A DNA stretch of 24,000 nt, taken from an uncultured Oscillospiraceae bacterium (GTDB taxonomy: Bacteria; Bacillota; Clostridia; Peptostreptococcales; Anaerovoracaceae). The translations under genes were made by a program, and so were the position numbers. The notes under the pieces were generated by a model. It did no database searches and was not told the origin of the DNA. It saw only the letters and a list, made by a program, of their open reading frames with translations. This document shows, in pieces, positions 1,175 to 24,000 of the stretch (its first letter is position 1; each line of letters starts with the position of its first letter). The DNA lies in assembly GCA_964450985.1 (NCBI GenBank), contig CAYVFH010000007.1:4068-28067 (forward strand), in the 5' to 3' direction.

Positions 1175-1176
1175 GG

Positions 1177-5240: not shown

Positions 5241-5283
5241 ATGGTTCTTCCCTTTCTGCGATACATTCTTTTTCTTTTTATTC

Positions 5284-6111
5284 TTAGTGGGATATGTCAA
5301 AAAAGCGTTGCCCGTTCTCCCGGGTCTTCCTGGCCACTTCTTCATAGGAAACCCCTTTGATTTCCGCCACCTTTCGAGCCACATGCTCCACATAGGGAGA
5401 TTGGTTGGGCTTGCCTCGGTGAGGCACCGGTGTCAAGTAAGGTGCATCCGTTTCAATCAGCAAATAGTCCAGGGGGACCGCTCTCACCACATCCTGAAGG
5501 CGACGTGCATTGTCATAAGTTACCGGCCCTGCCACGGATATGGTGGCTCCCAACTTGATATATTGCAGGGCTTGCTCTTTGCTGCCACTATAACAGTGCA
5601 ACAATACCCGTGCATCCTCCTTCTGAATCTCCCCCGGTCTCTTGGGAAACCAGCTTCTTCTTTGGGAAGAAAAAGCCCCTTCTTCCTTCAGGATGCGCAT
5701 AACATCCTCGTGGGCATCCCGGTCGTGGATCACAATGGGCATCTGTAATTGGTTGGCCAACTGAATCTGCTGGGAAAACCAATATTGTTGATCCTCTTTG
5801 GGAGACAGGTTTCGATAGTAATCCAATCCCATTTCTCCAATAGCCTTGGCCTTCGGATGTCGAGCCAACTCCTCCAGTAATTGCAACTGGTCGTGGTCAA
5901 ATCCACTGGCTTCATGGGGATGACAACCCACCACCGCATAGCACCAGGGAAAGCGTTTGGCATGGTCCAGGGCCATGGCCGAAGATGCCAAATCAAATCC
6001 GATATCCATCACATAGGAAACGGAAGAACTCTGAATGGCTTGAAAGAGGGCCTCTCGTTGCTCCGGATTGTAAGTCTCATTATTTAAATGGGTGTGAGAA
6101 TCAAATAACAT
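5284..6111 (-). CDS. tatD: TatD-family metal-dependent hydrolase/DNase (YabD-like)
   Basis: MLFDSHTHLN N-terminus (HxH metal motif) plus the later GEMGLDY and HCYSGS blocks typical of TatD. GGAG lies 6 nt upstream of the ATG at 6111. It follows metG as in Bacillus (metS-yabD). Confidence 0.9.
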   Translation of the reverse strand: MLFDSHTHLNNETYNPEQREALFQAIQSSSVSYVMDIGFDLASSAMALDHAKRFPWCYAVVGCHPHEASGFDHDQLQLLEELARHPKAKAIGEMGLDYYRNLSPKEDQQYWFSQQIQLANQLQMPIVIHDRDAHEDVMRILKEEGAFSSQRRSWFPKRPGEIQKEDARVLLHCYSGSKEQALQYIKLGATISVAGPVTYDNARRLQDVVRAVPLDYLLIETDAPYLTPVPHRGKPNQSPYVEHVARKVAEIKGVSYEEVARKTRENGQRFFDISH

Positions 6112-9238: not shown

Positions 9239-9991
9239 CTAGGTAACGATTACCTTCCCAAAACCTAGTTCCACCGCCAGATTTCGTAATTCTTCCATGG
9301 TCTGGTTATTGGGTACTTTCAAGCCCTTCAGCATTTCTTTTCGCACCCCCATGGGTCGATATTTTATCAGCCGGTAGGTGGCTTGCTTTCTGTACTCTCC
9401 CAAGAGGCATGCCACGGTGCGAATGGTTTCTTCCGAGTCGGTTCTCCCCGGAACCACCACGGTGCGGATCTCTTCCAGTTTCCCACTTTGGGCCAAAAAA
9501 ACCAAATTGTCCAACACTTGGACGTTGGAAGCGCCAATTAGTTCCCGATGCATCTCCGGGTTTCCTTCCTTCACATCCAAGAGAATACCGTCCGTCACTT
9601 TCAGAAGCTCCGGGTCCTTTCGAAAATCATAGGACCCGTTACTGTCAATCAACGTGGTCAAGTCCCCTCCCCCCGGAGCCTTGCCTTTCCCCCGCTCTTT
9701 TATATCCGAAAAAAAATCTCTTAGAAACTCCGGATGTAATGTACATTCCCCACCGGACACGGTGACTCCCCGCACAAAGGGGGCATTGGCCAACACTCGA
9801 TTCGTCACCTCCGCCGGGGTCATCCAGGTAAGGGAAACCGCAGGATCCTTTAAATCGATGGTTTCCGGATTGTGGCAATAGGCACAATTGAAATTGCAGC
9901 CTTGAAGAAATACGGCCGTGCGATTTCCACGGCCGTCGACAATGCTATGATTGAGAATCTTATGGACGGGAGCCTTGTGATCTTGATTCAT
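9239..9991 (-). CDS. yjjW: Glycyl-radical enzyme activating enzyme (radical SAM), YjjW-like
   Basis: N-terminal SIVDGRGNRTAVFLQGCNFNCAYCHNPE, that is the GRE-activase G-rich motif plus CX3CX2C (codons at 9898..9875). 250 aa. The start is 3 nt after the stop of the GRE gene. Confidence 0.85.
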   Translation of the reverse strand: MNQDHKAPVHKILNHSIVDGRGNRTAVFLQGCNFNCAYCHNPETIDLKDPAVSLTWMTPAEVTNRVLANAPFVRGVTVSGGECTLHPEFLRDFFSDIKERGKGKAPGGGDLTTLIDSNGSYDFRKDPELLKVTDGILLDVKEGNPEMHRELIGASNVQVLDNLVFLAQSGKLEEIRTVVVPGRTDSEETIRTVACLLGEYRKQATYRLIKYRPMGVRKEMLKGLKVPNNQTMEELRNLAVELGFGKVIVT

Positions 9992-9994
9992 GGA

Positions 9995-11599
9995 TTATTC
10001 TTCCTCTACCTTTCTCACTTTTCTCTCTTCAATTTTGGATTTCTGTCGAGAGGTGAGCCCCAACACCACGGTGTCATTTAATACGGCCTCTCCTTTTTCC
10101 AAGGCATCCATATCGCTTCGTTTCACCAGATATCCAGTAATCCGAATCACGTCGCTGTCGCTGGAATAGGTAGAAATGTATCGCATGCCGGAGTCAAATG
10201 CACCCTTAAATATATCCAACACCGCCTCCGGGTTTTTCGCTGCCGTAGAATCAAAGGGGAAGATATCTCCTGTGCCCGATGGGAAGTATTTGTGGAACAG
10301 TGCTGCGTGGCGGATATGGTCGTATAAAGGAAGCTCGCTGCCAATGGCAATCCGAGTTCCGGGGCTAATGCCGGAATCCGCATCGGTTCCCACCTGGGCA
10401 TGAAGCATGAATCGTCCTTTCCAGAAAGGACAGTGAGGATTTTCATGATGATCCACTCTGTCTTTTATGAAATCCATGATTTCCAGAGCCAGGTTGTCTG
10501 CCCCCACGTCATATCCGAACTTCCCGTCCTTCCCCTCTTTTTCCATCAAGGTATTGACGCACTCATTCATCCCCACCACTCCAAAAAGTCCATTGAATCG
10601 GTCCGGCTGAATAAAGCCTTCCTTCACCAGAAAGTTGGTTCGGAAGAAGGGTGTCTCATTCACTAAAAATTCAATTTTTGCATCCATAAAAGCCAACATG
10701 GTATCAATGGCCCATGGCAAAGCCCGAGTCATAAAGTCTTCTTTGTCCTTGGCCCCTTCTGCCACTCTGGCCAAAATCAATCGGGTCAATGTATAAGCGC
10801 CACCGGCTACGGGCAACCCGTTGTAACAACTGGCAATGCCGTAATGATCTCCCAACTCCTCACGGAAGAGAGAATCCTTGGCAAAGCTGGGCTTGGCACA
10901 ATCCAATGCGGTTTCGATGGCTAACGCACCCAGTTCGTCCGGTGTCACCTTGGGATCGTAAAGCAAGGTCAGATTAGGCGTTGAATCTTGCAGCACCCTT
11001 TCGGCCCGCAAAATCAAGCGAATGGTTTTGCTGTCCTCCGGGCCGATGTTCCCATGACAAAATGAATCGAAAACCGTACGGTCGATGGTTCGTAAAAACA
11101 TTTTGATCATTTGAAAGGAGGTTTCCTCTCCCCCGGTTTTTTCGATTTCCTTCACTACAAAGGGCTCCAGCATTCGGTCCAGTCTTCCGATATACACCGG
11201 GAAATGAGTGACCGAAGGAACGGAAGAATACATGGCCAGCAAAGCCGTTAGGGCATCCAGCAAAGTTTCCGGAGGCGAAAGACGAAGAAAATCAGACCCT
11301 TTTTCCATCAGCTTGGCATAGTCCGGTAATATATATCGGGGCATATAGGTGACATCCCCTTCGTTCAGGTCGCAAATCCAACCCTTTGCCTTCATGTCCC
11401 GATAATCCGCCTCCACCTGGGCATCCATTCCCGGGGTATCCAAAAGATCCCGACCCGCCGCCGCCAGTGCATAGGTCATTTGGTGAGGGGTCAATGTTTC
11501 ATCGGTGATAATGACTTTCACCTTGTCTTGATGTTGGGCTAAAGTCCACCTTTTTCCTTGTTCTTCTGCCATTTTCATGCCTCCTTCATATTCTATCAT
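9995..11599 (-). CDS. yjjI: Short glycyl-radical enzyme, YjjI family (substrate unknown)
   Basis: About 530 aa, much shorter than PFL-type GREs, which is the size class of E. coli YjjI. C-terminal glycyl-radical fingerprint VIRITGYLV (RITGY at 10144..10130, Gly codon 10135..10133), 46 residues from the C-terminus. Immediately followed by a cognate activase. Two equally good SD-ATG pairs exist: ATG 11599 (AGGAGG + 9 nt) and ATG 11572 (AGGAGG + 7 nt). Confidence 0.8.
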   Translation of the reverse strand: MIEYEGGMKMAEEQGKRWTLAQHQDKVKVIITDETLTPHQMTYALAAAGRDLLDTPGMDAQVEADYRDMKAKGWICDLNEGDVTYMPRYILPDYAKLMEKGSDFLRLSPPETLLDALTALLAMYSSVPSVTHFPVYIGRLDRMLEPFVVKEIEKTGGEETSFQMIKMFLRTIDRTVFDSFCHGNIGPEDSKTIRLILRAERVLQDSTPNLTLLYDPKVTPDELGALAIETALDCAKPSFAKDSLFREELGDHYGIASCYNGLPVAGGAYTLTRLILARVAEGAKDKEDFMTRALPWAIDTMLAFMDAKIEFLVNETPFFRTNFLVKEGFIQPDRFNGLFGVVGMNECVNTLMEKEGKDGKFGYDVGADNLALEIMDFIKDRVDHHENPHCPFWKGRFMLHAQVGTDADSGISPGTRIAIGSELPLYDHIRHAALFHKYFPSGTGDIFPFDSTAAKNPEAVLDIFKGAFDSGMRYISTYSSDSDVIRITGYLVKRSDMDALEKGEAVLNDTVVLGLTSRQKSKIEERKVRKVEEE

Positions 11600-11633
11600 T
11601 ATTATATACCTCCTTTTGAAAAAACAAAACAGG

Positions 11634-11661
11634 TTAAAAGCCCGTGGATTTGTGCTATAAT
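11634..11661 (+). promoter_or_regulatory. Extended -10 promoter for the ABC exporter operon (possibly leaderless)
   Basis: TTAAAA (11634..11639), a 16-nt spacer, then TGcTATAAT (-10 at 11656..11661), then 7 nt (GACCGTT) and the ATG at 11669. No SD-like purine run precedes the ATG. Confidence 0.4.
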
Positions 11662-11668
11662 GACCGTT

Positions 11669-13426
11669 ATGAAAAGAATATTACGTATATATATCCCCTA
11701 TATCCCATTGATTTTCCTTACAGGCGGCTTGATTATTATGCAAGCACTGCTTCAGTTGGAATTACCCAAGCTGATGGCACAGATCATTGATCAGGGAATC
11801 GTGCTGGGAAACTTATCACTGATATATGGTACGGGGGCTACTATGCTGGGGCTGACTCTCCTGGTATGCATAGCCGCAGTCTCCGTTTCTTTTTTGGGTG
11901 CTCGGATTTCTTCTCGCTCCGCTGCCAAACTGCGTTCCAACCTGTTCGATCAGGTCACCCGATTCGGTAGTGCAGAAATCGAACACTTTGGAACCTCCTC
12001 CTTAATTACCCGAGCTACCAACGACGTGCTGCAAATTCAAAATACTTCGTTAATGCTGCTCCGCATGGGATTCTTCGCCCCCGCCATGGGTATCGGGGCT
12101 TTATTGATGGCCATTCGAACCAATCGAGATTTGACCTGGACCATCGTAGTGGCTTTGGCCGCCTTGTTGATACTGATTGTCATTTCCGTCTCCTTATCAT
12201 TACCAAAATTCAGAATCCTACAAAAGCTGATGGACCGACTGAATCTAATCGTCAACGAAAGACTGTCCGGTCTATTAGTGATTCGCGCATTCCACCGGGA
12301 AACTTCCGAAGAACAACGATTTGACAAGGCGAATATGGATTTGATGAAAACCAATCTTTTCGTCAGTCGACTCATGTCCTTCATGATGCCGGGCATGACA
12401 TTGATCATGTCTTATGGTTCTCTCTTGGTGGTTTGGGCCGGAGCCGGACTGATTCAACAAGATCGGCTGGCCATTGGAGATATGATGGCCTTTATCCAAT
12501 ATGCCATGCATGTGGTCATGTCATTTTTGTTTCTCACTATGTTTTTCATCATGTTGCCAAGAGCCATGGTCTCCGCTCAGCGTGTACAAGAGGTGCTTTC
12601 CATGGAGCCTAGAATTTCCGAAGTCTGTTTGGAAGACCAGGAAAATTTATCTCTGAGCACCCCGGGAGAGGTGGTCTTTGAAAATGTGTGTTTCCGCTAT
12701 CCCGATGCCGAGGAAGATGTACTTCATGACATTTCCTTTCGAGCAAAACCAGGTACCTGGACCGCCATTGTGGGGGGTACCGGCTCTGGAAAATCCACCC
12801 TCATTAATCTTTTGCCACGATTCTACGATGTAACCCAAGGAAGTATAACCGTAGACGGAGTAGATATCCGTCATCTTTGCCACGAAAATCTAAGGCAACT
12901 GATCGGTTATGTCCCCCAAAAGGGTGTCCTGTTTTCCGGCTCCATTCGCTCCAATGTCACCTATGCTAATCCGGAAATGGACGAAACCACCTTGACACAA
13001 GCCATGAAGATCAGTCAATCCTATGAGTTTGTGGAGGAAAAGCCGGAGGGGTTGGAAACATCCATCGCCCAGGGAGGCACCAATGTGTCGGGAGGCCAAA
13101 GGCAGCGACTCAGCATCGCCCGGGCCATCGCCAAGAATTCTCCCATATATATCTTTGACGATAGCTTCAGCGCTTTGGATTTCGCCACAGAGGTGTCTTT
13201 GCGCAAGGCCATGCTCCACTCTTTGGGAAATCGAACGGTTTTTGTAGTGGCTCAGAGAATTAGTACCGTAAAGGATGCCCATCAGATCGTCGTGTTGGAA
13301 GAAGGAAAAGTGGCTGGGATTGGAACACACTCACAGCTATTGGACACTTGTCCCGTATACCGGGAGCTGGCAGCCTCTCAGCTTCAGATTACTTCGGAAG
13401 GGGGTAATGCCAATGGCAGGTCCTAA
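11669..13426 (+). CDS. ABC exporter half-transporter (TMD-NBD), subunit with degenerate ATPase motifs
   Basis: Six-TM type I exporter domain followed by an NBD. Walker A GGTGSGKST, signature VSGGQRQR, Walker B IYIFDDS (Asp at 13160..13162 where the catalytic Glu is expected), switch loop VVAQRIST (Gln at 13253..13255 instead of His). Start chosen at MKRILRIYIPY, the typical family N-terminus. The ORF-track extension to 11558 overlaps yjjI and is rejected. Confidence 0.9.
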   Translation: MKRILRIYIPYIPLIFLTGGLIIMQALLQLELPKLMAQIIDQGIVLGNLSLIYGTGATMLGLTLLVCIAAVSVSFLGARISSRSAAKLRSNLFDQVTRFGSAEIEHFGTSSLITRATNDVLQIQNTSLMLLRMGFFAPAMGIGALLMAIRTNRDLTWTIVVALAALLILIVISVSLSLPKFRILQKLMDRLNLIVNERLSGLLVIRAFHRETSEEQRFDKANMDLMKTNLFVSRLMSFMMPGMTLIMSYGSLLVVWAGAGLIQQDRLAIGDMMAFIQYAMHVVMSFLFLTMFFIMLPRAMVSAQRVQEVLSMEPRISEVCLEDQENLSLSTPGEVVFENVCFRYPDAEEDVLHDISFRAKPGTWTAIVGGTGSGKSTLINLLPRFYDVTQGSITVDGVDIRHLCHENLRQLIGYVPQKGVLFSGSIRSNVTYANPEMDETTLTQAMKISQSYEFVEEKPEGLETSIAQGGTNVSGGQRQRLSIARAIAKNSPIYIFDDSFSALDFATEVSLRKAMLHSLGNRTVFVVAQRISTVKDAHQIVVLEEGKVAGIGTHSQLLDTCPVYRELAASQLQITSEGGNANGRS

Positions 13427-15260
13427 GATTCGCCCCGGACGAGGTCCTGGCAGTGGAGGGGGTCCGGGGGCAGCCATGATGCCGGGAGAAAAACCGAAAA
13501 ACTTCCGTGGAACCATGTCCACTTTGGGTGGATATTTAAAACCCTATCGCGTGAAGCTGGTACTGGCATGCGTAGCCGCCCTATTTTCAGTGGTGTTTTC
13601 TGTGGTATCTCCATTGATACTTGGAATGGCTACCGACGTGGTAGCAGACTCTGTGTTGACGGATCAACCCTTGGACTTCACCAAGCTAGGTCAATTTATA
13701 GTGGTTTTACTTTTTCTATATGGGGTGTCCGCCTTGTTTTCCGGGTGGCTGGGTTTTCTCATGGCGGGAGTGGCTCAGAAAATCAGCTATCAACTCCGAA
13801 AGGATTTATCGGAAAAACTGGATCGCCTGCCCCTCTCCTATTTCGACCACCGAACCCATGGAGAAATCTTATCCCGGGTGACCAATGATGTGGACACGGT
13901 GAATACCACACTCAATCAAACCCTTTCCCAAATCGTTACCAACGGAATTACCATTTTGGGGATTTTGGTCTTGATGATATATATCAATCCCCTCATGACC
14001 CTCATCGCTCTGTTGACCATACCCCTCTCCTTATGGGTCATCCGTCAAATCGTGAAACGCTCCCAAGGACACTTTAAGGATAATCAAAGGTTTTTGGGAC
14101 AAGTAAATGGCCACATCGAAGAAATGTTCTCCGGCCATATTATTGTGAAAGCCTTTAATGGGGAAAAACAGTCCAAAGAAATCTTTGAGAACTGGAACCA
14201 CCAATTGGCCCGGGCCGGAGAAAAATCTCAATTCTTATCCGGCACCATGATGCCTCTTATCAACATGATTGGTAACCTGGGTTTCATTCTGGTCTGCGTG
14301 GTGGGAGGTACCTTAGCCTTCCAAGGCCGCATGACCATAGGAAGTATTCAGGCCTTTGTCCAATATATTAGAACCTTCAACCATCCCATCGCCCAGCTGG
14401 CCAATGTGGCCAACGTGCTTCAATCTACCGCCGCAGCGGCAGAGCGGGTTTTTGAGGTATTGAAGGAAGAGGAGGAGCTGCCGGATTCCGAAAAGGAATC
14501 ACCTTTGGGGGTGGATCAGGTTCGTGGTGAAATCACCTTTGACCATGTTTCTTTTCACTATCCCACCCAGGAGGAGAACCCTCAACCTCTCATCAAGGAC
14601 TTCCACTTTGTAGCCAAACCAGGTCAACGAATCGCCATTGTGGGTCCTACTGGCGCGGGTAAAACCACCATCGTCAAGCTCCTACTACGTTTCTATGAGC
14701 TGACTAGTGGAAGAATTCTGGTAGACGGAGTGGATATCACCACCATCCCCAGAAAAGAATTGCGTTCTATCTTCAGCATGGTGCTTCAGGACAACTGGCT
14801 ATTCAGCGGTACCATCGAAGAAAACATTGGATATGGCTCTGCCAATCCTACTAAAGAAGAAATTGTGAGTGCCGCCCACTCTGCCCATATCCACCATTTC
14901 ATCAAAACCCAACCCGGCGGATACCATATGGTCATCCAGGAAGAAGCCGGTAATTTGTCCCAGGGACAAAAGCAACTGATGACGTTGGCCAGGGCTTTTC
15001 TGGCGGATTCTCCCATTCTCATATTGGATGAAGCCACCAGCTCTGTAGACACCCGTACGGAAGCACAAATCCAGAAGGCCATGGCACAGCTCATGGAAGG
15101 GCGAACCAGTTTTGTCATTGCTCATCGCCTTTCCACCATTGTGGATGCGGATGTGATATTAGTGATGAAAGACGGGGATGTAATAGAAAAAGGAACCCAC
15201 CAGGAGCTGCTGGCTCAAGGTGGATTCTACAAAACCCTTTATGAAAGTCAATATCTATAA
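13413..15260 (+). CDS. ABC exporter half-transporter (TMD-NBD), canonical ATPase partner subunit
   Basis: N-terminus MAGPKIRPGRGPGSGGGPGAAMMPGEKPKNFRGT, typical of the second subunit of Firmicutes heterodimeric exporters. Walker A GPTGAGKTT, Walker B ILILDEATS, switch His in IAHRLST. The signature is non-canonical: LSQGQ (14955..14969). SD GGAAGGGGG lies 7 nt upstream. There is a 14-nt overlap with the upstream gene. Confidence 0.9.
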   Translation: MAGPKIRPGRGPGSGGGPGAAMMPGEKPKNFRGTMSTLGGYLKPYRVKLVLACVAALFSVVFSVVSPLILGMATDVVADSVLTDQPLDFTKLGQFIVVLLFLYGVSALFSGWLGFLMAGVAQKISYQLRKDLSEKLDRLPLSYFDHRTHGEILSRVTNDVDTVNTTLNQTLSQIVTNGITILGILVLMIYINPLMTLIALLTIPLSLWVIRQIVKRSQGHFKDNQRFLGQVNGHIEEMFSGHIIVKAFNGEKQSKEIFENWNHQLARAGEKSQFLSGTMMPLINMIGNLGFILVCVVGGTLAFQGRMTIGSIQAFVQYIRTFNHPIAQLANVANVLQSTAAAAERVFEVLKEEEELPDSEKESPLGVDQVRGEITFDHVSFHYPTQEENPQPLIKDFHFVAKPGQRIAIVGPTGAGKTTIVKLLLRFYELTSGRILVDGVDITTIPRKELRSIFSMVLQDNWLFSGTIEENIGYGSANPTKEEIVSAAHSAHIHHFIKTQPGGYHMVIQEEAGNLSQGQKQLMTLARAFLADSPILILDEATSSVDTRTEAQIQKAMAQLMEGRTSFVIAHRLSTIVDADVILVMKDGDVIEKGTHQELLAQGGFYKTLYESQYL

Positions 15261-15262
15261 AA

Positions 15263-15294
15263 TATCCTGTGATTCCATCTGCAATCACAGGATA
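15263..15294. terminator. Bidirectional hairpin terminator between convergent genes
   Basis: Perfect 12-bp inverted repeat TATCCTGTGATT / AATCACAGGATA with an 8-nt loop (CCATCTGC). It lies 2 nt after the + strand stop (15260) and 6 nt after the minus-strand stop (15301). A T-rich run (TATTTTATAG) follows on the minus-strand reading. Confidence 0.7.
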
Positions 15295-15300
15295 TAGATG

Positions 15301-16440
15301 CTATTTGTCATCATCCCGGAAACTGTGGTAGCCCCGCCCCTGGTACTCATCCCCCACGTTTCTTCCGGTGATGGTGTATTTTTTTAGAATCTTTTCCAGT
15401 TGGGGATTCTTCTCCAGCTCCTTCTCACAAAGCGCCTTCTCATAGGGGGTAAGGGTCTCCAATGGCTTCATATGATCTCTTATGGGCAGTGGCAAAAACC
15501 ACAGATACAGGCCGGGAGTAATCACCCACAGGTCCAGGACCAACCATGCCAGTACCCAATAAACCACACCCTCTCTTCCACTGATTTCAATGCCTCCATA
15601 AACAGAGGCTAAAAATCCCAGAATAAAGATAATCATCGGCATATAGAACCGTTCCAATCGACGGATTCCCTTTACCATAAGAGGATCATACCATAATTTC
15701 CGACGCTTCTTGGAGAAGTAGCTGGCCCCCCTGAAATTGGTATAAGCTACAAAAGTTGCATCTTTCATGTCCTGCCAAGTGGGCATTGTCGAGAATCCTG
15801 TGGTGTCTTCTTCTGTCTTCTCTGCCCCCTGGCCATAGGCCACCAGAGTCTCGATGGTTCTTCCTTCTCCCATCAGCTTGAGAGAAGCTTCTTGTTCCCT
15901 TTCCCCGAAGATAACCAACTGGTCCCCGGGGCGGAGGGATACGGTATCTTGATCCATTACCGCCACCAGATACCCGGACTCGCAATAGTATCCCCGGGCA
16001 TAATAGGGTCTGTCCTGTTCAAGAAATCCGGAAGGTAATTTTTGGTTTATTGCCTCCGAAGACAAAGTCAGCAATCGCAATTGGCCTACCTGTCCCTCTT
16101 GAACCATCAGATTGTAATCCTGAGCCTTCCCAAAGCTTTGTGTGGAAACACCTCCATGAAAGGTATGGGGCTGAAAAGGCTCCAACCGAAATGATTTTTC
16201 CCCTTGATGCACCAATACCAATTCCCCCGCCAGCAACATCAAGTGCCGTTGGTAGTGAGGAAGAGGCGTGAATAGGGAGGATTCTAACTGAATTTCCGCC
16301 CGACTCAACCGAAAAATGAAATCTCGATTTTCATAGGATGAGTTCTCCGGATATCGAAAAATCTCCCATGTGGTTCCACCGGACCAACGGGCTTCTATGG
16401 CCTCTTCTTTTCGGATGATTCCATAGGATTTTTCGCTCAT
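15301..16440 (-). CDS. HutD/Ves-family domain fused to a C-terminal two-TM membrane anchor
   Basis: The N-terminal ~210 aa match the HutD/Ves pattern: RWSGGTTWEIFRYP...DFIFRLSRAEI...LFTPLP.YQRHLMLLAGELVL...LEPFQPHTFHG...DYNLMV. The C-terminal part has two hydrophobic helices (FYMPMIIFILGFLASVYGGI and VVYWVLAWLVLDLWVITPGLYLWFLPLP) and a charged tail. ATG 16440 has SD AAAGGA and lies 7 nt after the upstream stop. The TTG at 16464 in the ORF track is rejected. Confidence 0.75.
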   Translation of the reverse strand: MSEKSYGIIRKEEAIEARWSGGTTWEIFRYPENSSYENRDFIFRLSRAEIQLESSLFTPLPHYQRHLMLLAGELVLVHQGEKSFRLEPFQPHTFHGGVSTQSFGKAQDYNLMVQEGQVGQLRLLTLSSEAINQKLPSGFLEQDRPYYARGYYCESGYLVAVMDQDTVSLRPGDQLVIFGEREQEASLKLMGEGRTIETLVAYGQGAEKTEEDTTGFSTMPTWQDMKDATFVAYTNFRGASYFSKKRRKLWYDPLMVKGIRRLERFYMPMIIFILGFLASVYGGIEISGREGVVYWVLAWLVLDLWVITPGLYLWFLPLPIRDHMKPLETLTPYEKALCEKELEKNPQLEKILKKYTITGRNVGDEYQGRGYHSFRDDDK

Positions 16441-16447
16441 TTCTTTT

Positions 16448-17845
16448 TTATCCTTTCGAAGCAAGCCTTCCCTTACGAGTCCCCAACCTCAATGTAATTC
16501 CCAAAAGCAAAACAAAGTAAACCGCCATGATAGCCACTACGGTAAACAACAACAAGGTGGATTTGGGTGCCATGCCAATCAGAATCAACATAGGCAACGC
16601 AAACACGATGGCGGAGCAGCTACCGGTAACCAGGTTATTGGCGGCCGGTGTTTTTAAGGTGGGATCGATTTCACGAAGCAGCAGAATCCCGGAGCTTACG
16701 GTACCGGTCATCATGCCGAACATGGACATAAATCCTTCGTAATAATATTCCGGGTATAGTATCTTGGTAACTCGCTTCATGTAATAGAATGTACCAAATC
16801 CACCGGCAAATGACATTAAGATGAACACAATCCAGTTCCCGGATAAATCCCCAATTTCTATAGATGCAATACCTGCTACAATCATCACATCAAAGGCCAG
16901 TCCGGAAATGCGGCTCAGCAGATAATTGTTTTGATATTGACGTGTCATGATGGAACGGTTCTTTAAATGGCGAAGGACGAATCGGAGCAGCATGGCCAAC
17001 AGAGATCCCACGATGAAGTTAAATCCCCACAAGAGACTGTTTACCGAGTCGCCAGCTGCCGGGGATATTCCATTGATTCCCGAAGTCAAGCCCCATGTGG
17101 TGAGATAAGTTCCCAAGTACACCAACACCACCAGCGCCACCTGTACCGATAGTCGGTCCACCGATTCCGCCACCGGAATCTCATCCTTATGCTGAAACAT
17201 ATCGATGGTCACAGACCCGGATATTTCTTCATACCCATTCCCTCGAATCAATCCCTTGCGGCGAAGTACATTCAGATAGATTACGCCCGCCACACAGGCC
17301 CAAAGAAATCCCATGGCCGCAATGGCCAGTGCGAAGGATCTTCCGCCGGTCATGCCCATGCTCTCGTAGATGGTGCCCACATTGTTGGCCTGTCCGGGAC
17401 CTTGTCCATATCCCATAGGCAATAGGATTCCCGCCGCCTTGAAGAACTGGGGCATAAATGTATATCCCACTCCAATGGTAATCAACAGCCCCATCAGCCC
17501 TTGAAACAAATATACGCTGACAATCAGGGACCCGCTTCGCACCCCCACCCAGCGGCCGGTCTCCTCTATAGTGGAAGGCTCCGGCACCCGCAGGGTCATG
17601 GCGATGAACCCCAAAGCAATCCCGTGATAGGTAATCATCTCCAACAGTTCCAACTGCATATTGAGAATTCCCGTAGAACGAAGAATCAATAGCAAAAATC
17701 CCCCCAATACTGCCGTGGGCATTAAGGAATTACGAATGATGGGAAAATTCCTGCGAAGGGCATTTGCCGCCAAAACCGTAGCGGCGATGATTCCAAATTG
17801 GACCACCACATTCCATAGGCCTACATTTGCTGCGGAAAAATCCAT
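16448..17845 (-). CDS. Polytopic membrane carrier, sodium/glutamate symporter (GltS/ESS)-like
   Basis: About 465 aa and hydrophobic throughout (10 or more predicted TM segments). The N-terminal block LRRNFPIIRNSLMPTAVLGGFLLL resembles the GltS block (K..IP.PV.GG). A glycine-rich re-entrant-like loop LPMGYGQGPGQANNVG is present. ATG 17845 has SD AAAGGAG 8 nt upstream. The family call is from memory only. Confidence 0.5.
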   Translation of the reverse strand: MDFSAANVGLWNVVVQFGIIAATVLAANALRRNFPIIRNSLMPTAVLGGFLLLILRSTGILNMQLELLEMITYHGIALGFIAMTLRVPEPSTIEETGRWVGVRSGSLIVSVYLFQGLMGLLITIGVGYTFMPQFFKAAGILLPMGYGQGPGQANNVGTIYESMGMTGGRSFALAIAAMGFLWACVAGVIYLNVLRRKGLIRGNGYEEISGSVTIDMFQHKDEIPVAESVDRLSVQVALVVLVYLGTYLTTWGLTSGINGISPAAGDSVNSLLWGFNFIVGSLLAMLLRFVLRHLKNRSIMTRQYQNNYLLSRISGLAFDVMIVAGIASIEIGDLSGNWIVFILMSFAGGFGTFYYMKRVTKILYPEYYYEGFMSMFGMMTGTVSSGILLLREIDPTLKTPAANNLVTGSCSAIVFALPMLILIGMAPKSTLLLFTVVAIMAVYFVLLLGITLRLGTRKGRLASKG

Positions 17846-17864
17846 GGATAAATCTCCTTTCGAA

Positions 17865-19034
17865 TCAAACTCTTCTAACGTCTCCATTTCCGGTCAAGTA
17901 CTTATATAGAACCACATATTTTCGAGCGCTTCTGGGAAACTTGGACTTAATCTCATAATGGGCATTTCCGGAGGAAAATACAATGGACTGTTTCCCATGC
18001 ACGTTCATATCAATAATTTCTTCAAAGGGAAACGCGTACTCTCCCAGGGTGATTCGATCTCCATATAGGCAAAGAGTACCCATGGCCAGTTGAATTCTCT
18101 TATGAGATACCGGGTCCATGAGGTACAGCAGCTGCCCCGGATCGGAAAATGCTTTTTTTGTTCCCATCTGCTGAGCGACTCCGGCCATCTCCTCCACCTG
18201 CCAGTTGTCCCAATCCGTTACGGTGTGGTAGGGCAGATTCTTCCCATGAAGAATTCCATACTCGTCTATGGTAGAACAAAGTTCGCAAGCGGTACAGAAA
18301 AAATCATTACCCTTGCTTCGCAGGGTGCCTATTTCCCCACATGACGGGCACATATATAAAGTGATTTCCAACCACTCCGCCAGGTTCTTTCCGCTATAGG
18401 CGATGGGGTTTTCCTTCTGTCGGGCATAGGCATCCTCGTGAAGATCCCTTTGGATCAGCTCGTTGATTTCCTTGTCCGTCATATGCTTCAATTCTTCGAA
18501 AGGATAGACGCCCACCACATAACCCTTCATTTTCCCTTTTCGATTTTTTGCCGCCCACCGGGGGCTGGTAAAGTAACCACCTTCAAAGCGATAGGTTACC
18601 AGAGTCGTTTGACAAACCTTCACTAATTTCCCCGTTGCCGGCGCAATGGGATGGGTCACCCCATTGAAACTTCGATGACCTTCCGCAAAAATGCAAATAG
18701 AATGGCCCTTTCGAATTCTTCGCATCACATCCTTTACCGCCCCTGCATCCGCCGTGCTTTTCAGCTTGGACACGGGTCCCGCCACCCAGTCAATGACCAC
18801 GGAGCGCCAACCCCAGCTCAAAACATGTTCGCTGGCTAAGAAGTACATATGGCGAGGGAAGCTGCGGGAAATCAAGATAGGATCCACATTGATATTGTGG
18901 TTGGCTAAAATCAAACAGGGCCCCTGAATCCCTTTGGCTTTTTCACTTTTAATGCGAAAAATCCATCCGCTGAAGGGATAGAGAATCAGACGTATGATTC
19001 GATATAATAAGATGTGCCTTTTGGCATGTTCCAT
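17865..19034 (-). CDS. PlsC/LPLAT-family acyltransferase with C-terminal zinc-ribbon and beta-rich domain
   Basis: HX4D catalytic motif in LANHNINVDP (18899..18882) and a second block IFAEGHRS. Downstream lies CPSC-x14-CTAC(ELC), a CxxC...CxxC zinc ribbon (18350..18276), followed by a ~130-aa domain of PH/GRAM-like appearance. The start is 3 nt after the ligase stop. Confidence 0.8.
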   Translation of the reverse strand: MEHAKRHILLYRIIRLILYPFSGWIFRIKSEKAKGIQGPCLILANHNINVDPILISRSFPRHMYFLASEHVLSWGWRSVVIDWVAGPVSKLKSTADAGAVKDVMRRIRKGHSICIFAEGHRSFNGVTHPIAPATGKLVKVCQTTLVTYRFEGGYFTSPRWAAKNRKGKMKGYVVGVYPFEELKHMTDKEINELIQRDLHEDAYARQKENPIAYSGKNLAEWLEITLYMCPSCGEIGTLRSKGNDFFCTACELCSTIDEYGILHGKNLPYHTVTDWDNWQVEEMAGVAQQMGTKKAFSDPGQLLYLMDPVSHKRIQLAMGTLCLYGDRITLGEYAFPFEEIIDMNVHGKQSIVFSSGNAHYEIKSKFPRSARKYVVLYKYLTGNGDVRRV

Positions 19035-19037
19035 TTT

Positions 19038-20789
19038 TTATGCGGGAGAACCTGCGGTCTCCACCTCTCCTATTTTCTCTAATTCCTCCTGCTCCAACAC
19101 AGTATATGCCACTTTTCCCACCAAGGTTTGCGGCAAGGAATCTCGGTATTCGAAATCATATGGCATGGCATATTTGGCGATATTTTCTTTGCAATGCTCA
19201 TAGATACTCTCCTTCACATCATCGGTGGGTTCAAATCCCGGCTTCAACACCAGGAAAGCCTTCACCTTCTCCATTTTATAGGGATCCGGCACACCGATTA
19301 CGGTGGACATGGATACTGCGGGATGGGCATCCAACACATTTTCGATTTGAGATGGGTAGATGGAGTAACCGGAGGAAACAATCATCCGTTTGATGCGTTG
19401 CTTGAAATAGACAAACCCTTCCGAATCGATGACACCCAAGTCTCCGGTATGAAGCCAGGTGTGCCCGTCTTCATGAAGACGTAATACCTGGGCGGTTTCT
19501 TCCGGGTTATCCAGATATCCTTGCATCACGGAAGGGCCGGTTATGCAGATTTCCCCTTCCTCTCCATAAGGAACCTCCTCCACCGAATTCACCTTGCATA
19601 TTTTGTAGTAGGTGTCCGGGAAGGGAATGCCAATGCTCCCCTCTCTATAAAAATCCTTGGGAGTCAGACAACTGGCGGTTACACATTCCGTAGTGCCATA
19701 GCCTTCCCGAATTTGAATTTTTGCTCCTTGCTGTTTTAAAAAGGCATCCACCTTCTTCTTCAGTTCAATGGAAAGAGAATCTCCGCCGGAGAAGACGCCT
19801 TCCAGGCAGGACAAGTCCACCTTCACCATATGCTTATTGCGCAATAAGGCTTCAAATAAGGTGGGAACCCCTGCGATATAGTTGGGTTGATATTTTTTCA
19901 AAAGCTCCGCATAGGTATCAGCACTAAACTGAGGCACCAGGATTTCCAGACAACCATAGCACATGCCGGTGTGAATGCCCACCCCCAGACCAAAGCCGTG
20001 AAATACCGGCATAATGGCCAGCATTCGGTGACCCGCCACCAGGCAATCACCGGCGGCTGCCGTCTGCATGGCCAGGGCATTGAAATTTAAGTTGGATAAT
20101 AGAATTCCTTTGGTAGTTCCGGTGGTTCCACCGCTATATAGAATCGCTCCCGTGTCTTCGCCCTTTACCTGCGCCCGAAACTCTCCCGTATACTGTTTTC
20201 CCACGTCCATGAAATCACGATAAAAAACCACCCCGGGGCCCACCGGCACCTGAGGGATTTTTCGCCCCTTCTTCAGCCAATATCCCAAAGAAACCAAAGG
20301 TTTCAATTCGTCGCTGATGGAAGTAACAATGATATTTTTTAAAGAAGGTGCATGCTTTCTGGCCTCTTGGAATTTTGGGAAAAATCCATCCAAGGTCACC
20401 GCCGCCACACTATGGGAACAGTTCAAATAGAACTCCACTTCCTTTTGTGCGGATAAGGGGTGAATCATATTGGGAATTCCTCCCATGCGATTCAAACCGT
20501 AAAACATCACCAATGCTTGGGGCGAATTGGGTAAACAAATGGTGACACGTTCTCCCTTTTTCACACCCAGGGCCACCAACGCTTTGGCACAGGTATCCAC
20601 ATCCTGAAAGAACTCCCGGTAAGTGGCTCTCTTCCCCAGGAAATCATAGGCTTCATAATCCATAAAGCCCTGTGTCTGTGCCTGTTGCTCCAGAAAGTCA
20701 ATCATTGAACCTTGCGGGTAGGTAAGACGAGCTGGTATGGACCCGTAGGCACTTAACCAGGGCGCCTTCAAAGAAACATCATTCATCAT
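19038..20789 (-). CDS. AMP-forming acyl-CoA/acyl-ACP ligase (long-chain fatty-acid ligase-like, ANL superfamily)
   Basis: AMP-binding motif I ILYSGGTTGTTKG, plus the YGTTE and GDLG..D..G..YF..R.K motifs. 583 aa. The start ATGATG overlaps the upstream stop (ATGATGAATGA, 11-nt overlap). Confidence 0.9.
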   Translation of the reverse strand: MMNDVSLKAPWLSAYGSIPARLTYPQGSMIDFLEQQAQTQGFMDYEAYDFLGKRATYREFFQDVDTCAKALVALGVKKGERVTICLPNSPQALVMFYGLNRMGGIPNMIHPLSAQKEVEFYLNCSHSVAAVTLDGFFPKFQEARKHAPSLKNIIVTSISDELKPLVSLGYWLKKGRKIPQVPVGPGVVFYRDFMDVGKQYTGEFRAQVKGEDTGAILYSGGTTGTTKGILLSNLNFNALAMQTAAAGDCLVAGHRMLAIMPVFHGFGLGVGIHTGMCYGCLEILVPQFSADTYAELLKKYQPNYIAGVPTLFEALLRNKHMVKVDLSCLEGVFSGGDSLSIELKKKVDAFLKQQGAKIQIREGYGTTECVTASCLTPKDFYREGSIGIPFPDTYYKICKVNSVEEVPYGEEGEICITGPSVMQGYLDNPEETAQVLRLHEDGHTWLHTGDLGVIDSEGFVYFKQRIKRMIVSSGYSIYPSQIENVLDAHPAVSMSTVIGVPDPYKMEKVKAFLVLKPGFEPTDDVKESIYEHCKENIAKYAMPYDFEYRDSLPQTLVGKVAYTVLEQEELEKIGEVETAGSPA

Positions 20790-21654
20790 AATCCACGGCC
20801 TCCTTTATCGGGGCTTCCAACAATTTTGGGTTGGCAATCAAGTACTTTAGGAGCTTTACGGAACGGGCAAAATAGAAGCCATCAGCAATTCTCTCATCCA
20901 AGGTGATTCCAAAATTCACCACCCAACGAGGAATAATGTTTCCCCCTGAATCCACCACAGGCATTCGATGGACGTGGCCAATGGTAATCATAATGGAATT
21001 GGTTCCGTAATTATTCAAATGATGGTAACAGGCATCGCACTTTATGCTTCCTAGATTGGAAACCAATACACTGGCATAATTCGTATCGCTATTACAGATG
21101 GACTTTGGCATCCATCCGTGGAAGTCCAAAAATCGAAAAACGGTCATAATAAAACGCATCACCAACCGGGGCATTTTGCTGAGAAAATCCAAAAGGCCGT
21201 CCACCTCCGCCTTCCCATGATCCCGCATTTCCTCCACGTCCCCTGCAATCTTCTGCTGTAGGTCTTTTAGGGTCATTTCCCCCCTAACATCCAGCACCAT
21301 AATCATCTCCTGGGCTTCATCCTGAAAAAACCGCTTCACCATAAAGGCAAAGGTCAGCTTCTTTCGCTGATAGTACCGCCTTCCGGCAACGAACCGGTTC
21401 AGATAGGGTCGATGATACAATGTCTTGGCCAAAGCAGCAATAAAATAATGAAAGGGGGTCACTTTCGCATCCGGGTTCTCCCCTTTCACTCGCTCCAATT
21501 CTTCCATCAAGTCCGTTACATCGATGGTTTCATACAGGTATACCTCGGAATCGCATCGATTGGGAAACAGAAAGGGCATCATGGCATGTACGCCATCCAG
21601 CCCCCGAATCCGGGTCCCGTCCCAACGATCTCCTCGTCTCCTCTTATTTTCCAA
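20779..21654 (-). CDS. Stand-alone CAT/2-oxoacid-dehydrogenase-E2-fold acyltransferase-like protein (catalytic His replaced by Glu)
   Basis: Layout is collinear with an E2 catalytic domain: ...IDVTDLMEEL...KVTPFHYFIAALAKTLYHRPYLNRF...VSNLGS...ITLDERIADGFYFARSVKLLKYL. The DHRxxDG motif reads DERIADG (Glu codon 20895..20893). TTG start at 21654 with GAGGG 9 nt upstream. An in-frame TGA lies 7 codons upstream of that start codon, so it cannot start earlier. Confidence 0.65.
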   Translation of the reverse strand: MENKRRRGDRWDGTRIRGLDGVHAMMPFLFPNRCDSEVYLYETIDVTDLMEELERVKGENPDAKVTPFHYFIAALAKTLYHRPYLNRFVAGRRYYQRKKLTFAFMVKRFFQDEAQEMIMVLDVRGEMTLKDLQQKIAGDVEEMRDHGKAEVDGLLDFLSKMPRLVMRFIMTVFRFLDFHGWMPKSICNSDTNYASVLVSNLGSIKCDACYHHLNNYGTNSIMITIGHVHRMPVVDSGGNIIPRWVVNFGITLDERIADGFYFARSVKLLKYLIANPKLLEAPIKEAVDYDE

Positions 21655-21693
21655 ATCTATCGACCCTCGGTCCTTTCATTGATATGATTCCCT

Positions 21694-21721
21694 ATTATAT
21701 CAAATATGAGGATAATTTCAA
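21694..21721 (-). promoter_or_regulatory. Strong sigma-A-type promoter of the five-gene acyltransferase/ligase/carrier/HutD operon
   Basis: Minus strand reads TTGAAA (21721..21716), a 16-nt spacer, then TGaTATAAT (-10 at 21699..21694). It lies about 35 nt upstream of the SD/TTG start. Confidence 0.55.
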
Positions 21722-21735
21722 TAGATTGCCGTGAC

Positions 21736-23157
21736 CTACCCCTGATTTGTTAGGCTCTCAAGCTGCCATAATTCCTCCTGGGAGGGCACCTTGTTTTCCG
21801 GCATAAAATCTGCAATTCGAGATACGTTCATCAAATGGGTGTAGGTCAGGTTTTCAGATATGGAATTGTTCCCCCAGGTTCCACACCCCAAGGTATTTGT
21901 GGGATTCAATCCATTAAAAAAGCTGCCCCCTGCACTGAAGGAACATGCCTGGTTCACCAGGAAACGGGAAACCGACAATTGTAATCCTGCATACTCTATA
22001 TTCTCCCGATTGTTGGAATGAATGGCCACACTATGGCCTTTCCCCTCTACCTCCAGGTTGGCTTTGGCCATTTCCACACCTTCTTTGAAATCATCATACC
22101 CATGGACTACCAATACCGGGCACATTTTCTCCTTGGTGAGAAGTTCTTCTTTTCCATAGCCTTCTCCCTCCACCACAATCACCCGACAATCTTCCGGCAC
22201 ACCAAGCCCTGCCAGTTCTCCTATCTTTTGAGCCGACTGTCCGATGGCATGACGATTCATTGACCCTTCCGGAAACAAGGCTTCCCGAAGGGTATCTCTC
22301 TCGGAATCCTGCCGCAAGACCAAACAGCCCTCCTCCTCAAAGCATTTCATAATTTCTTCCTTGTGTTCCTTGGGGAATATGGCGCTTTGCTCTCCGGAGC
22401 AAATGATACCATAATCAAATGCTCTACCGGCCACCAACTTGGATACGGCTTCCCGGTAATCGATGCCCCGGTCCAAAATGCATTGCACATTGCCGGCGCC
22501 CACACCCAGGGCCGGTTTGCCGGAGCTGTAAGCCGCCTTCACCATACCCATGCCTCCCGTGGCAATCACCACATCGCATTGAGCCATAAGATTCCGTGTA
22601 TTTTCTCTGGATTGCCAATCCAATATTTGAATCAAATGAGAAGGCATTCCCAGTTTTGCCAGAGCTTCATTCATATATTCCACCGCCTTGGTGCTGCTCT
22701 TGATGGCCCGGTGGTGGGGGGTAACAATGATGGCATTGCCGCACTTCAATGCAAACATGGCATTGCTCATAGGGGTTACGATGGGGTTAGTTAGCGGTGT
22801 GATGGATGCCACCAATCCCACCGGCTTGGCCACCTTGGTAATACCGGTTACCTCATCTCTTTCCAGAATACCTCTGGACTTCTTGCCCTTCAGATGATTC
22901 CAGATAACCGATGCCTTGCTCTGATTCTTTATGGTCTTATCGGGTACATTTCCCATACCGGATTCTTCTACTGCCATTTCCGCCAACTCTTCCGCATGGT
23001 CGTAAATGGCCTTGGCAATGGTCATGACAGCGGCATCCACCTCTTCTTGAGACATTTTTTCAAATTCAGCCTGGGCCATCTTCCCTCGCTGAACATACTC
23101 TCCAATATATTCTTCACTGCTTTTTTCCATCCATTGATTTTGTACTCTTTCTTCCAT
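21736..23157 (-). CDS. CoA-acylating aldehyde dehydrogenase, succinate-semialdehyde dehydrogenase (Clostridium kluyveri SucD)-type
   Basis: 473 aa. Blocks AQAEFEKMSQEEVDAAV, ASITPLTNPIVTPM.NAM.ALK..N.IIV.PH, VVIATGG.GMVKAAYSSGKPA.GVG.GN, catalytic Cys in YGIICSGEQS (22401..22399), and C-terminal LGCGTWGNNSISENLTYTHLMNVSRI. These closely follow the C. kluyveri SucD sequence as I recall it. SD AAGGAGAG lies 7 nt upstream of ATG 23157. Confidence 0.8.
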   Translation of the reverse strand: MEERVQNQWMEKSSEEYIGEYVQRGKMAQAEFEKMSQEEVDAAVMTIAKAIYDHAEELAEMAVEESGMGNVPDKTIKNQSKASVIWNHLKGKKSRGILERDEVTGITKVAKPVGLVASITPLTNPIVTPMSNAMFALKCGNAIIVTPHHRAIKSSTKAVEYMNEALAKLGMPSHLIQILDWQSRENTRNLMAQCDVVIATGGMGMVKAAYSSGKPALGVGAGNVQCILDRGIDYREAVSKLVAGRAFDYGIICSGEQSAIFPKEHKEEIMKCFEEEGCLVLRQDSERDTLREALFPEGSMNRHAIGQSAQKIGELAGLGVPEDCRVIVVEGEGYGKEELLTKEKMCPVLVVHGYDDFKEGVEMAKANLEVEGKGHSVAIHSNNRENIEYAGLQLSVSRFLVNQACSFSAGGSFFNGLNPTNTLGCGTWGNNSISENLTYTHLMNVSRIADFMPENKVPSQEELWQLESLTNQG

Positions 23158-23193: not shown

Positions 23194-23222
23194 ATTATAT
23201 CCTACCCCCTGCCCAAAATCAA
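23194..23222 (-). promoter_or_regulatory. Near-consensus sigma-A promoter for the aldehyde dehydrogenase gene
   Basis: Minus strand reads TTGATT (23222..23217), a 17-nt spacer, then TATAAT (23199..23194). It lies between the upstream terminator and the SD. Confidence 0.6.
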
Positions 23223-23298: not shown

Positions 23299-24000
23299 TT
23301 ACAGCGAGCTTGATCTTGCACCCACCCGGGGCTCAATTCTCCCCTCGGAGACCAGCTGCAAGAATACTGCCACCAGATGCGGGTCAAATTGCTGGCCCGC
23401 CTTGCGCTCCAATTCCTGAAGGGCATAGAATACACTGTAGGCATCTTTATAAGGCCTCAGGGATATCATGGCATCAAAGGCATCGGCAATGCATAGAATA
23501 CGGGCGGATAAGGGAATGTCCTCTCCCGAAATTCTTCGAGGATATCCTCTCCCGTTATACCACTCATGGTGGCCGATAACTGCCGGAATAACGTAGTCCA
23601 GAGAAGGCAAATGCCGGATAATGCTGACGGAGTTCTCCACATGTCCTTGCATCAACAAGTACTCTTCATCCGTCAATTGTCCCGGCTTATTCAGAATGTT
23701 TTCGCTGATGCCGATTTTCCCAATATCATGAAGGAGTGCCGCTTCCCGAATGATTTCCACCGCATCGTCACCCAGTCCGATTCCATAGGCAATCTCCGTG
23801 GCATAGTAGGATACATTGTTGGAATGATTGAAGGTGTAATGGTCCTTGGCATCGATGGCCGCAGACAGAGCGTATACCGTGGAGGCATAGCCGGAATAAA
23901 TATCCTGATGGTCCACTTCCAGGCTCACTTGCGTTCCATCCATTCGTTCCACTGTTCCGGAGCTGAGGGCCAATGCATTTTTGCCGCTCTTCTTCGCTTG
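23299..24000 (-). CDS. HD-GYP domain c-di-GMP phosphodiesterase, C-terminal part (5' end off window; probably GGDEF-HD-GYP)
   Basis: HD motif LLHDIGKIG, and HHEWYNGRGYP (23571..23539), a variant of HHExxDGxGYP. The reading frame is open to position 24000. The codons at the edge read QAKKSGKNALALS, which resembles the C-terminal helix of a GGDEF domain (..Y.AK..GKN). The Met at 23973 in the ORF track is therefore internal. Confidence 0.85.
   Translation of the reverse strand, partial: QAKKSGKNALALSSGTVERMDGTQVSLEVDHQDIYSGYASTVYALSAAIDAKDHYTFNHSNNVSYYATEIAYGIGLGDDAVEIIREAALLHDIGKIGISENILNKPGQLTDEEYLLMQGHVENSVSIIRHLPSLDYVIPAVIGHHEWYNGRGYPRRISGEDIPLSARILCIADAFDAMISLRPYKDAYSVFYALQELERKAGQQFDPHLVAVFLQLVSEGRIEPRVGARSSSL

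Follow-up and report, generated by a model that had tools for sequence, protein, structure and literature searches.

A clade-restricted operon of uncultured Clostridia that juxtaposes two widespread gene pairs and may serve carrier-coupled acylation

A 24,000-nucleotide stretch of DNA from an Anaerovoracaceae-like member of the uncultured Clostridia (contig CAYVFH010000007.1; hereafter the window, with coordinates counted from its first letter) carries a five-gene operon that is a mosaic and not one evolved five-part machine. Its first two genes form what we call module A: g1 (20779..21654, minus strand; 291 amino acids [aa], TTG start) encodes a stand-alone acyltransferase-like protein of the E2/chloramphenicol acetyltransferase (CAT) fold, and g2 (19038..20789, minus strand; 583 aa) encodes a FadD-like acyl-coenzyme A (acyl-CoA) ligase of the ANL superfamily. 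The next two form module B: g3 (17865..19034, minus strand; 389 aa) encodes a PlsC-type (HX4D) acyltransferase with a Cys4 zinc ribbon and a C-terminal domain, and g4 (16448..17845, minus strand; 465 aa) encodes a predicted ion-coupled secondary carrier from a divergent branch of the GltS/ESS group with a CitS-like fold. The mosaic is completed by g5 (15301..16440, minus strand; 379 aa), whose product joins a HutD/Ves bicupin to a two-helix membrane hairpin and a C-terminal tail, and in practice by g0 (21736..23157, minus strand; 473 aa), a CoA-acylating aldehyde dehydrogenase gene of the EutE/AdhE-N/SauS type that lies upstream, outside the five-gene unit. We read the operon as two widespread two-gene modules and a rare accessory gene that have come together in one lineage and would be put to use in carrier-coupled acylation, and we give this reading about an even chance of being right.

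The division into two pairs emerges from gene neighborhoods. An alignment of the carrier was scanned against one genome per species, and the best 80 of at least 473 confirmed matches were reannotated with the six window proteins; an alignment of the E2-like protein was scanned against metagenome contigs, and the best 80 of at least 534 confirmed loci were examined. A g3 homolog lay immediately upstream of the carrier gene, on the same strand, in 74 of the 80 carrier loci, and three of the six exceptions had no upstream DNA. The median gap from the g3 stop to the carrier start was 14 nucleotides (nt), with 50 of the 74 gaps being 20 nt or shorter or replaced by an overlap, and the hosts included Oscillospiraceae, Lachnospiraceae, Christensenellaceae, Clostridiaceae, Youngiibacter, Sporobacter, and Treponema. 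The E2-like gene kept different company: a ligase gene adjoined it on the same strand in 54 of the 80 metagenome loci (47 downstream and 7 upstream), and many of the loci with no adjacent ligase were contigs too short to tell. The overlap of 8 to 11 nt between the E2-like and ligase genes recurs in relatives. When a third recurrent neighbor of either pair was sought, only shadow open reading frames (ORFs) and low-frequency clusters were returned. Neither family is small, as the carrier family contains more than 5,800 protein clusters and the E2-like family more than 5,700 clusters at 90% identity.

These partnerships bear directly on an earlier note on this DNA, which had read g2 and g3 as a split, Aas-like pair serviced by the carrier. 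In Escherichia coli, Aas is a single fused protein that uses acyl-acyl carrier protein (acyl-ACP), and LplT is a lysophospholipid transporter of the major facilitator superfamily (MFS). By extension, g2 and g3 would re-acylate lysophospholipids flipped inward by g4, repairing membranes as LplT-Aas does, with g1 and g5 as accessories. The genes are contiguous and coupled, g3 and g2 match the Aas model PRK08633 in the domain order of the fused protein (model positions 414-549 and 776-1133, respectively), and the logic of a transporter, an acyltransferase, and an ANL enzyme fits the LplT-Aas complex (PMC11416262). However, those matches score 38.6 bits for g3 and 181.8 bits for g2 against a cutoff of 1,221, and g2 fits models of FadD acyl-CoA ligases far better, at 342 bits. 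The conserved partner of the ligase is g1 and not g3, with no g2-like ligase within up to about 8 kb on each side of 69 of the 74 PlsC-carrier pairs, and one clade member (L017) retains g3, g4, and g5 without any ligase. The carrier is not an MFS protein either, having instead a predicted elevator fold of the CitS/GltS kind, which is known for small anions. Taken with the two conserved pairings, these results make a split Aas improbable.

Unlike the pairs, the complete operon has a narrow distribution. The full five-gene set was confined to loci whose carrier shares at least 75% identity with g4 (L005, L012/L013, L016, L018, L094, and L095); the L014 contig stops within the carrier gene, and two 100%-identical fragments (L010 and L011) cover only the 3' end of the unit. 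Co-occurrence of the five families in other Clostridia, which the earlier note had proposed checking, thus holds in genomes besides this one but only within a single syntenic clade, and even there some members lack genes: L015 is without g1, and L017 is without both g1 and g2. A foreign origin for a g1-g2 insert was considered and rejected, as GC content stays level (0.45-0.54) and the identities of the individual genes rise and fall together from one clade member to the next.

One explanation for such a pattern is that g1-g2, g3-g4, and g5 are functionally unrelated and merely co-transcribed, the operon being an accident of genome rearrangement in one clade. Both pairs stand alone in the great majority of genomes, distant genes for the membrane-anchored HutD are solitary, the clade includes variants without g1, or without g1 and g2, and the strong promoter coincides exactly with the boundary at which the g1-g2 pair is either there or missing. 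Still, the 3-nt g2/g3 and 7-nt g4/g5 gaps have been retained while identities fell, co-varying across the clade, to about 52-60% for g3 and 38-48% for g5, and all of the components handle acyl groups or small-molecule ligands. Where g1 is missing, an acyl-CoA-forming aldehyde dehydrogenase is coupled directly to what follows: in L017 the stop codon of its gene (L017:5410-6798) overlaps the g3 start (ATGA), and in L015 the gene (L015:3580-5034) ends 27 nt from the ligase start, which suggests selection for a source of acyl-CoA beside g3. An E2-like and ligase pair also lies near a carrier outside the five-gene arrangement, about 5 kb downstream of a PlsC-carrier pair in L078 and 1.5-2.4 kb from a related carrier in L106 and L124. 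On this evidence we regard a purely accidental assembly as unlikely, and prefer the juxtaposition of modules that would serve a common end.

In its DNA the five-gene set reads as a genuine promoter-driven, translationally coupled transcription unit. The ORF list and direct reading of the sequence agree on five consecutive minus-strand ORFs, from 21654 to 15301, with the junctions and tight coupling that had been described for them. Genes g1 and g2 overlap by 11 nt (ATGATGAATGA, 20789..20779), a region in which the 3' end of g1 reads GAT TAT GAT GAA TGA and g2 starts at the first ATG of ATGATGAATGA. Only 3 nt separate g2 from g3 (TAA-AAA-ATG), the g3 TGA is followed by a 19-nt gap (ttcgAAAGGAGatttatcc) and the g4 ATG at 17845, and the g4 TAA is followed by a 7-nt gap (aaaagaa) and the g5 ATG at 16440. 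Longer starts present in the ORF list were rejected for both of the last two genes. For g4, 17845 was chosen over an upstream ATG at 17887 on the position of the Shine-Dalgarno sequence and because the alignment of homologs begins at an invariant N terminus, MDFSAAN; for g5, 16440 was chosen over 16464 on the Shine-Dalgarno position and a conserved N terminus (M-SEKSYG or equivalents).

The predicted signals at the two ends fit this unit. A sigma-70-type promoter with an extended -10 element (TTGAAA-16 nt-TGaTATAAT; 21721..21694, minus strand) falls within the 81 nt that separate g0 from g1 and would leave a 5' untranslated region of about 33 nt. With a scan score of 11 of 12, it was the top site of the regional scan, and no other site on either strand of the 24 kb reached 11, in keeping with the single strong promoter that had been claimed; only 0.03 such sites with the TG extension are expected per random 24 kb. 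The remaining promoter-like matches in the scanned region, some inside the operon and others on the opposite strand, scored no higher than 9 to 10 of 12; in all, 12 matches were counted, in line with the 10.9 ± 3.8 expected by chance. No terminator was predicted between the g0 stop (21736) and the promoter, so read-through from g0 is possible. At the other end, between convergent genes, is a terminator-like hairpin (15295..15262, minus strand) with a 13-bp perfect stem, an 8-nt loop, and then UUUUAU. It has a predicted free energy of -20.5 kcal/mol (z = -4.16), and none of 200 shuffled sequences was equally stable. The hairpin had been noticed before as a perfect stem of 12 bp (15263..15294), which the 13-bp stem contains; a simple terminator scan did not pick it up, and the stem was read directly from the sequence. 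An Rfam search of the window returned no riboswitch and no other RNA.

All five family assignments made at first reading held in profile, PDB, and fold searches, and what that reading had overlooked was the upstream aldehyde dehydrogenase, whose gene belongs to the unit in relatives, and the missing canonical catalytic His of g1. The g1 product scores 57.6 bits against PF00198 (cutoff 23) over two matched stretches, the best of which covers residues 188-279, and its family profile matches PDB entries 3mae (3.7e-8) and 1b5s. When g1 is aligned to these E2p/E2b structures, E254 falls at the position of the catalytic His, as the E2 active-site motif DHRxxDG has become DERIADG (residues 253-259; 20893..20913). 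In the same alignment, H211, the first His of a YHHLNNYG motif (residues 210-217; 21019..21042), takes the Ser/Thr position, that is, the Thr of FTPVIN. Neither position varies among 26 family members, which share 39-61% identity with g1. DER was also found in 80 of 80 metagenome homologs; since YHHLNNYG was among the search seeds of that scan, only the DER count is unbiased. The catalytic His and Ser/Thr positions of E2 and CAT enzymes oppose each other across the subunit interface. Judging from sequence, the g1 family may have either relocated its general base or altered its catalysis.

Membership of g1 in the superfamily of 2-oxoacid dehydrogenase E2 and CAT is indicated by the PF00198 score and by retention of the xxDG half of the active-site motif. 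As a true E2 subunit of a dehydrogenase complex, however, g1 was rejected, because three of four defining features (lipoyl and subunit-binding domains, catalytic residues, and E1/E3 association) fail. A Pfam scan of its 291 residues found PF00198 alone, with neither a lipoyl nor a peripheral-subunit-binding domain, and Glu and His occupy the positions of the catalytic His and Ser/Thr. Neither the window nor any of the annotated relatives L001-L005 contains an E1 or E3 gene, and none was found as a recurrent neighbor within 5 kb of 78 metagenome E2-like loci. The gene is paired instead with that of an acyl-CoA ligase.

That ligase, g2, matches PF00501 (2.4e-72) and PF13193. Its top NCBIfam matches, at the FadD score given above, are long-chain fatty-acid CoA ligases, all under their cutoffs, and its top PDB match is FadD-1 of A. 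fulgidus (3g7s). In Lentihominibacter-like contigs (L001:6346-9888), an enoyl-CoA hydratase (crotonase) gene is followed by the ligase and the E2-like gene, which hints at acyl-CoA chemistry for module A. In a Logan assembly (L004:9866-11579), the ligase beside the E2-like gene is broken into two ORFs of 296 and 277 aa, a possible frameshift or pseudogene.

In module B, g3 matches PF01553 at residues 37-148 (2.7e-13). N45, H46, and D51 of the NH-x4-D motif, a FAEGxRS block, and four cysteines (C229, C232, C247, and C250) are invariant in 47 homologs, and the family profile matches PlsC of T. maritima (5kym, 2.7e-6) as well as the zinc ribbons of the Rpb12 type from RNA polymerase. The C-terminal domain of about 130 aa had no Pfam match. 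Against TIGR00530, the equivalog model for PlsC (1-acyl-sn-glycerol-3-phosphate acyltransferase), g3 scores 41 bits, below the cutoff of 102.95, and whereas PlsC is a simple protein of about 240 aa, g3 adds the zinc ribbon and C-terminal domain.

The carrier was harder to place. In the Pfam scan, g4 had no match of its own, with no hit to Glt_symporter (PF03616) at E values up to 1 and none to MFS families, and sequence and profile searches of the PDB with it gave chance-level matches only. Among 28 close relatives, one matches Glt_symporter (1.2e-7) and 11 match DUF6107, and some sources name g4 homologs ESS or sodium:glutamate symporter. A more distant relative, 40% identical to g4 over its full length (L106:6247-7674), passes the Pfam gathering score for Glt_symporter (32.6 versus 26). 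An AlphaFold2 model of g4 (pLDDT 80.6, pTM 0.81) finds CitS (5xat and 5xas) as its best folds in Foldseek, at TM-scores of 0.51-0.58 and a probability of 1.0, although the E values are weak (4.6e-3 to 2.7e-2). We place g4 as a probable divergent elevator-type carrier of the GltS/CitS fold, its superfamily membership following from transitivity and fold only. That fold is typical of carriers for small polar solutes. The g4 product thus resembles GltS (ESS, a Na+/glutamate symporter) and CitS (2-hydroxycarboxylate transporter family) in predicted fold and through its 40%-identical relative, whereas g4 itself and 27 of the 28 close relatives lack a Glt_symporter match, and we know of no obligate acyltransferase partner for GltS or CitS. 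In two metagenome contigs (L106:2141-7674 and L124:7995-14388), it is a 475-aa carrier of this 40%-identical kind that lies 1.5-2.4 kb from an E2-like and ligase pair, and unrelated genes for a BNR-repeat protein and an ArsP-type permease keep the two apart.

The last gene of the unit, g5, scores 89.5 bits against PF05962 (cutoff 25) over residues 16-192 and matches the HutD structure of P. fluorescens (5fcc). Its predicted architecture is a cytoplasmic HutD/Ves bicupin (residues ~1-200), a conserved juxtamembrane segment, a membrane hairpin (~262-318) made of two hydrophobic segments (262-288 and 291-318 by hydropathy), and a C-terminal tail that is strongly conserved in 11 homologs. Its N-terminal 190 residues are those of HutD/Ves bicupins, whereas the fused hairpin and tail are not, and no hut genes were found in the window or in its syntenic relatives. 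A word-index search returned 13 relatives of g5. By exhaustive search, the full-length, membrane-anchored form (HutD-TM) accounts for only about 30-35 clusters at 50% identity among some 1,750 HutD relatives, most of which are soluble proteins of 190-210 aa. Within the clade, HutD-TM directly follows the carrier at every locus whose contig covers the downstream flank.

Likewise, g0 lies directly upstream of the unit in every clade relative whose contig covers that flank. Its best NCBIfam scores are to the AdhE N-terminal half (453 bits), SauS (447), and EutE-type enzymes (386), all below cutoffs, and the gene is preceded, at 23222..23194, by a promoter-like site with a score of 10 of 12. Farther upstream (23299..23973, minus strand) is a gene ending in an HD-GYP (HD_5) domain; in relatives (L012:723-3287 and L005:3257-4894), this gene encodes a 7TM-GAF-GGDEF-HD-GYP signaling protein and is preceded by a GH3-type gene, which resembles acyl-acid amido-synthetase genes. 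On the other side of the operon, and convergent to it, are two tandem MsbA-like ABC exporter half-transporters (11558..15260, plus strand); because the two ORFs as listed share about 150 nt, the true start of the second gene probably lies downstream of 13275. Beyond them are a YjjI-like glycyl-radical enzyme (PF11230, 5e-194) and a radical-SAM activase (9239..11599, minus strand), a pair that is syntenic in L012. Two ORFs with no Pfam match, of 213 aa (539..1180, plus strand) and 188 aa (4827..5393, minus strand), lie amid the housekeeping genes for FtsH, TilS, TatD, MetG, and LytR.

We propose that the operon most likely couples import of a small polar acceptor by the carrier to acylation of that acceptor, drawing acyl-CoA from the ligase and the aldehyde dehydrogenase. 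In module B, g4 would use a Na+ or H+ gradient to import a small polar, probably anionic, acceptor, which g3, as a peripheral membrane HX4D acyltransferase, would acylate at the cytoplasmic face; these steps are suggested by the CitS/GltS fold together with the tight coupling of g3 and g4. In module A, the ANL ligase g2 would activate a carboxylic acid, most likely to an acyl-CoA, and g1 would pass the acyl group to an acceptor in a separate or second acyl transfer. The acyl donors used in the clade would probably come from g2 and the upstream g0. By placing a small-molecule-binding bicupin at the membrane beside the carrier, g5 would probably act as its ligand-sensing or regulatory partner. 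Overall, the cell would scavenge an external metabolite and acylate it, which would yield an acylated amino acid or organic acid or a precursor of lipids.

Several observations weigh against this proposal. The exchange of Glu for His could leave g1 catalytically inactive, a pseudo-enzyme. The clade contigs that carry the five-gene set are also syntenic in their flanks (ABC exporters, YjjI, activase, and MetG), and because the whole region is syntenic, conservation of the five genes reflects shared ancestry and adds no independent support for their linkage; that modules A and B lie side by side may thus be without functional meaning. The C-terminal domain of g3 is without a usable model, a single-sequence AlphaFold2 prediction of g3 reaching a pLDDT of 31.6. 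Elevator carriers can also export, which makes import through g4 an assumption. The aldehyde dehydrogenase family of g0 acts as a rule on short-chain substrates and g2 looks like a medium- or long-chain enzyme, so a shared acyl pool is not obvious. Finally, distant HutD-TM homologs that are 36-37% identical to g5 (L174:7073-8176 and L175:8001-9113) are solitary, with no carrier or acyltransferase nearby, which indicates that the fusion protein has a role not requiring module B.

If the proposed coupling of uptake to acylation by a PlsC-type enzyme and a carrier is correct, cells would build lipids or acylated metabolites from scavenged compounds. A bolder version of the proposal would make g3-g4 an unrecognized and widespread transport-coupled acylation pathway of gut and rumen Clostridia and Treponema, with the g1 family forming, independently of it, a large group of active acyltransferases that use a swapped His/Glu arrangement for catalysis, and with the modules, g0, and HutD cooperating in the clade; we consider this combination possible but, on balance, doubtful. 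Were it true, the g3-g4 pathway would make an undescribed class of acylated small molecule or lipid. Whatever its product, the operon is restricted to one clade and the underlying bicistrons are widespread and uncharacterized, with many members coming from anaerobes of guts, rumens, and digesters. The change in the E2-like active site is also unusual, and the family could show whether a CAT/E2 active site still functions once its general base has shifted to another position. For annotation, the labels "2-oxo acid dehydrogenase subunit E2," "1-acyl-glycerol-3-phosphate acyltransferase," and "sodium:glutamate symporter" are unsuitable for these proteins.

The earlier note did not recognize the combination as a described system, and the searches agree with it: all five proteins stay below the NCBIfam equivalog cutoffs, and literature searches for the combination or for either gene pair returned nothing relevant. 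Among characterized systems, the aminolipid pathways of OlsB/OlsA and GlsB/GlsA share with this operon two acyltransferases, one of them PlsC-type. A comparable two-step synthesis of an aminolipid or N-acyl amino acid would have g4 import a glutamate-type substrate, g1 N-acylate it with acyl-CoA from g2, g3 O-acylate the product, and HutD bind an N-acyl-glutamate-like intermediate. The presence in a single unit of two different acyltransferases, an activating enzyme, and a carrier of the amino-acid type would suit this scheme, as would a faint match of g3 to the model of the lyso-ornithine-lipid O-acyltransferase OlsA (E = 0.0048) and the link of HutD to N-formylglutamate handling in Pseudomonas, in a study that states its function as unknown (PMC8034625). 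The OlsA match amounts to only 16 bits, however, against a cutoff of 300, Pfam and NCBIfam searches found no OlsB-, GlsB-, or OlsF-type N-acyltransferase among the operon proteins, and g1 lacks the canonical catalytic His. The carrier, the ligase, and HutD are foreign to the OlsB/OlsA and GlsB/GlsA systems, and because g3-g4 stands alone, lacking g1-g2, in most genomes, module B cannot in general serve a strict two-step pathway. We see only a slim chance that the operon works in this way.

Carrier-coupled acylation, our preferred reading, finds its closest parallel in LplT-Aas, a working complex of transporter and acyltransferase in Gram-negative bacteria (PMC11416262). Both arrangements place a transporter gene beside an HX4D acyltransferase and an ANL adenylate-forming enzyme, in both the substrate would cross the membrane and then be acylated at its inner face, and the weak matches of g3 and g2 to PRK08633 point in the same direction. 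Of three LplT-Aas features compared, the HX4D domain is present, whereas a fused or coupled acyl-ACP synthetase and an MFS transporter are both absent. LplT has an MFS fold, whereas the carrier has a predicted elevator fold of the GltS/CitS kind; Aas is fused, whereas g2 is encoded separately, resembles FadD, and has g1 as its evolutionary partner; g3 carries a zinc ribbon and a C-terminal domain in addition; and the hosts are Gram-positive Clostridia and Treponema. The interpretation in the earlier note is partly supported. What survives is its logic, in which a substrate is activated or imported before an acyl group is transferred, by analogy with LplT-Aas, in a transporter-linked acyl transfer that would have been assembled from different protein families.

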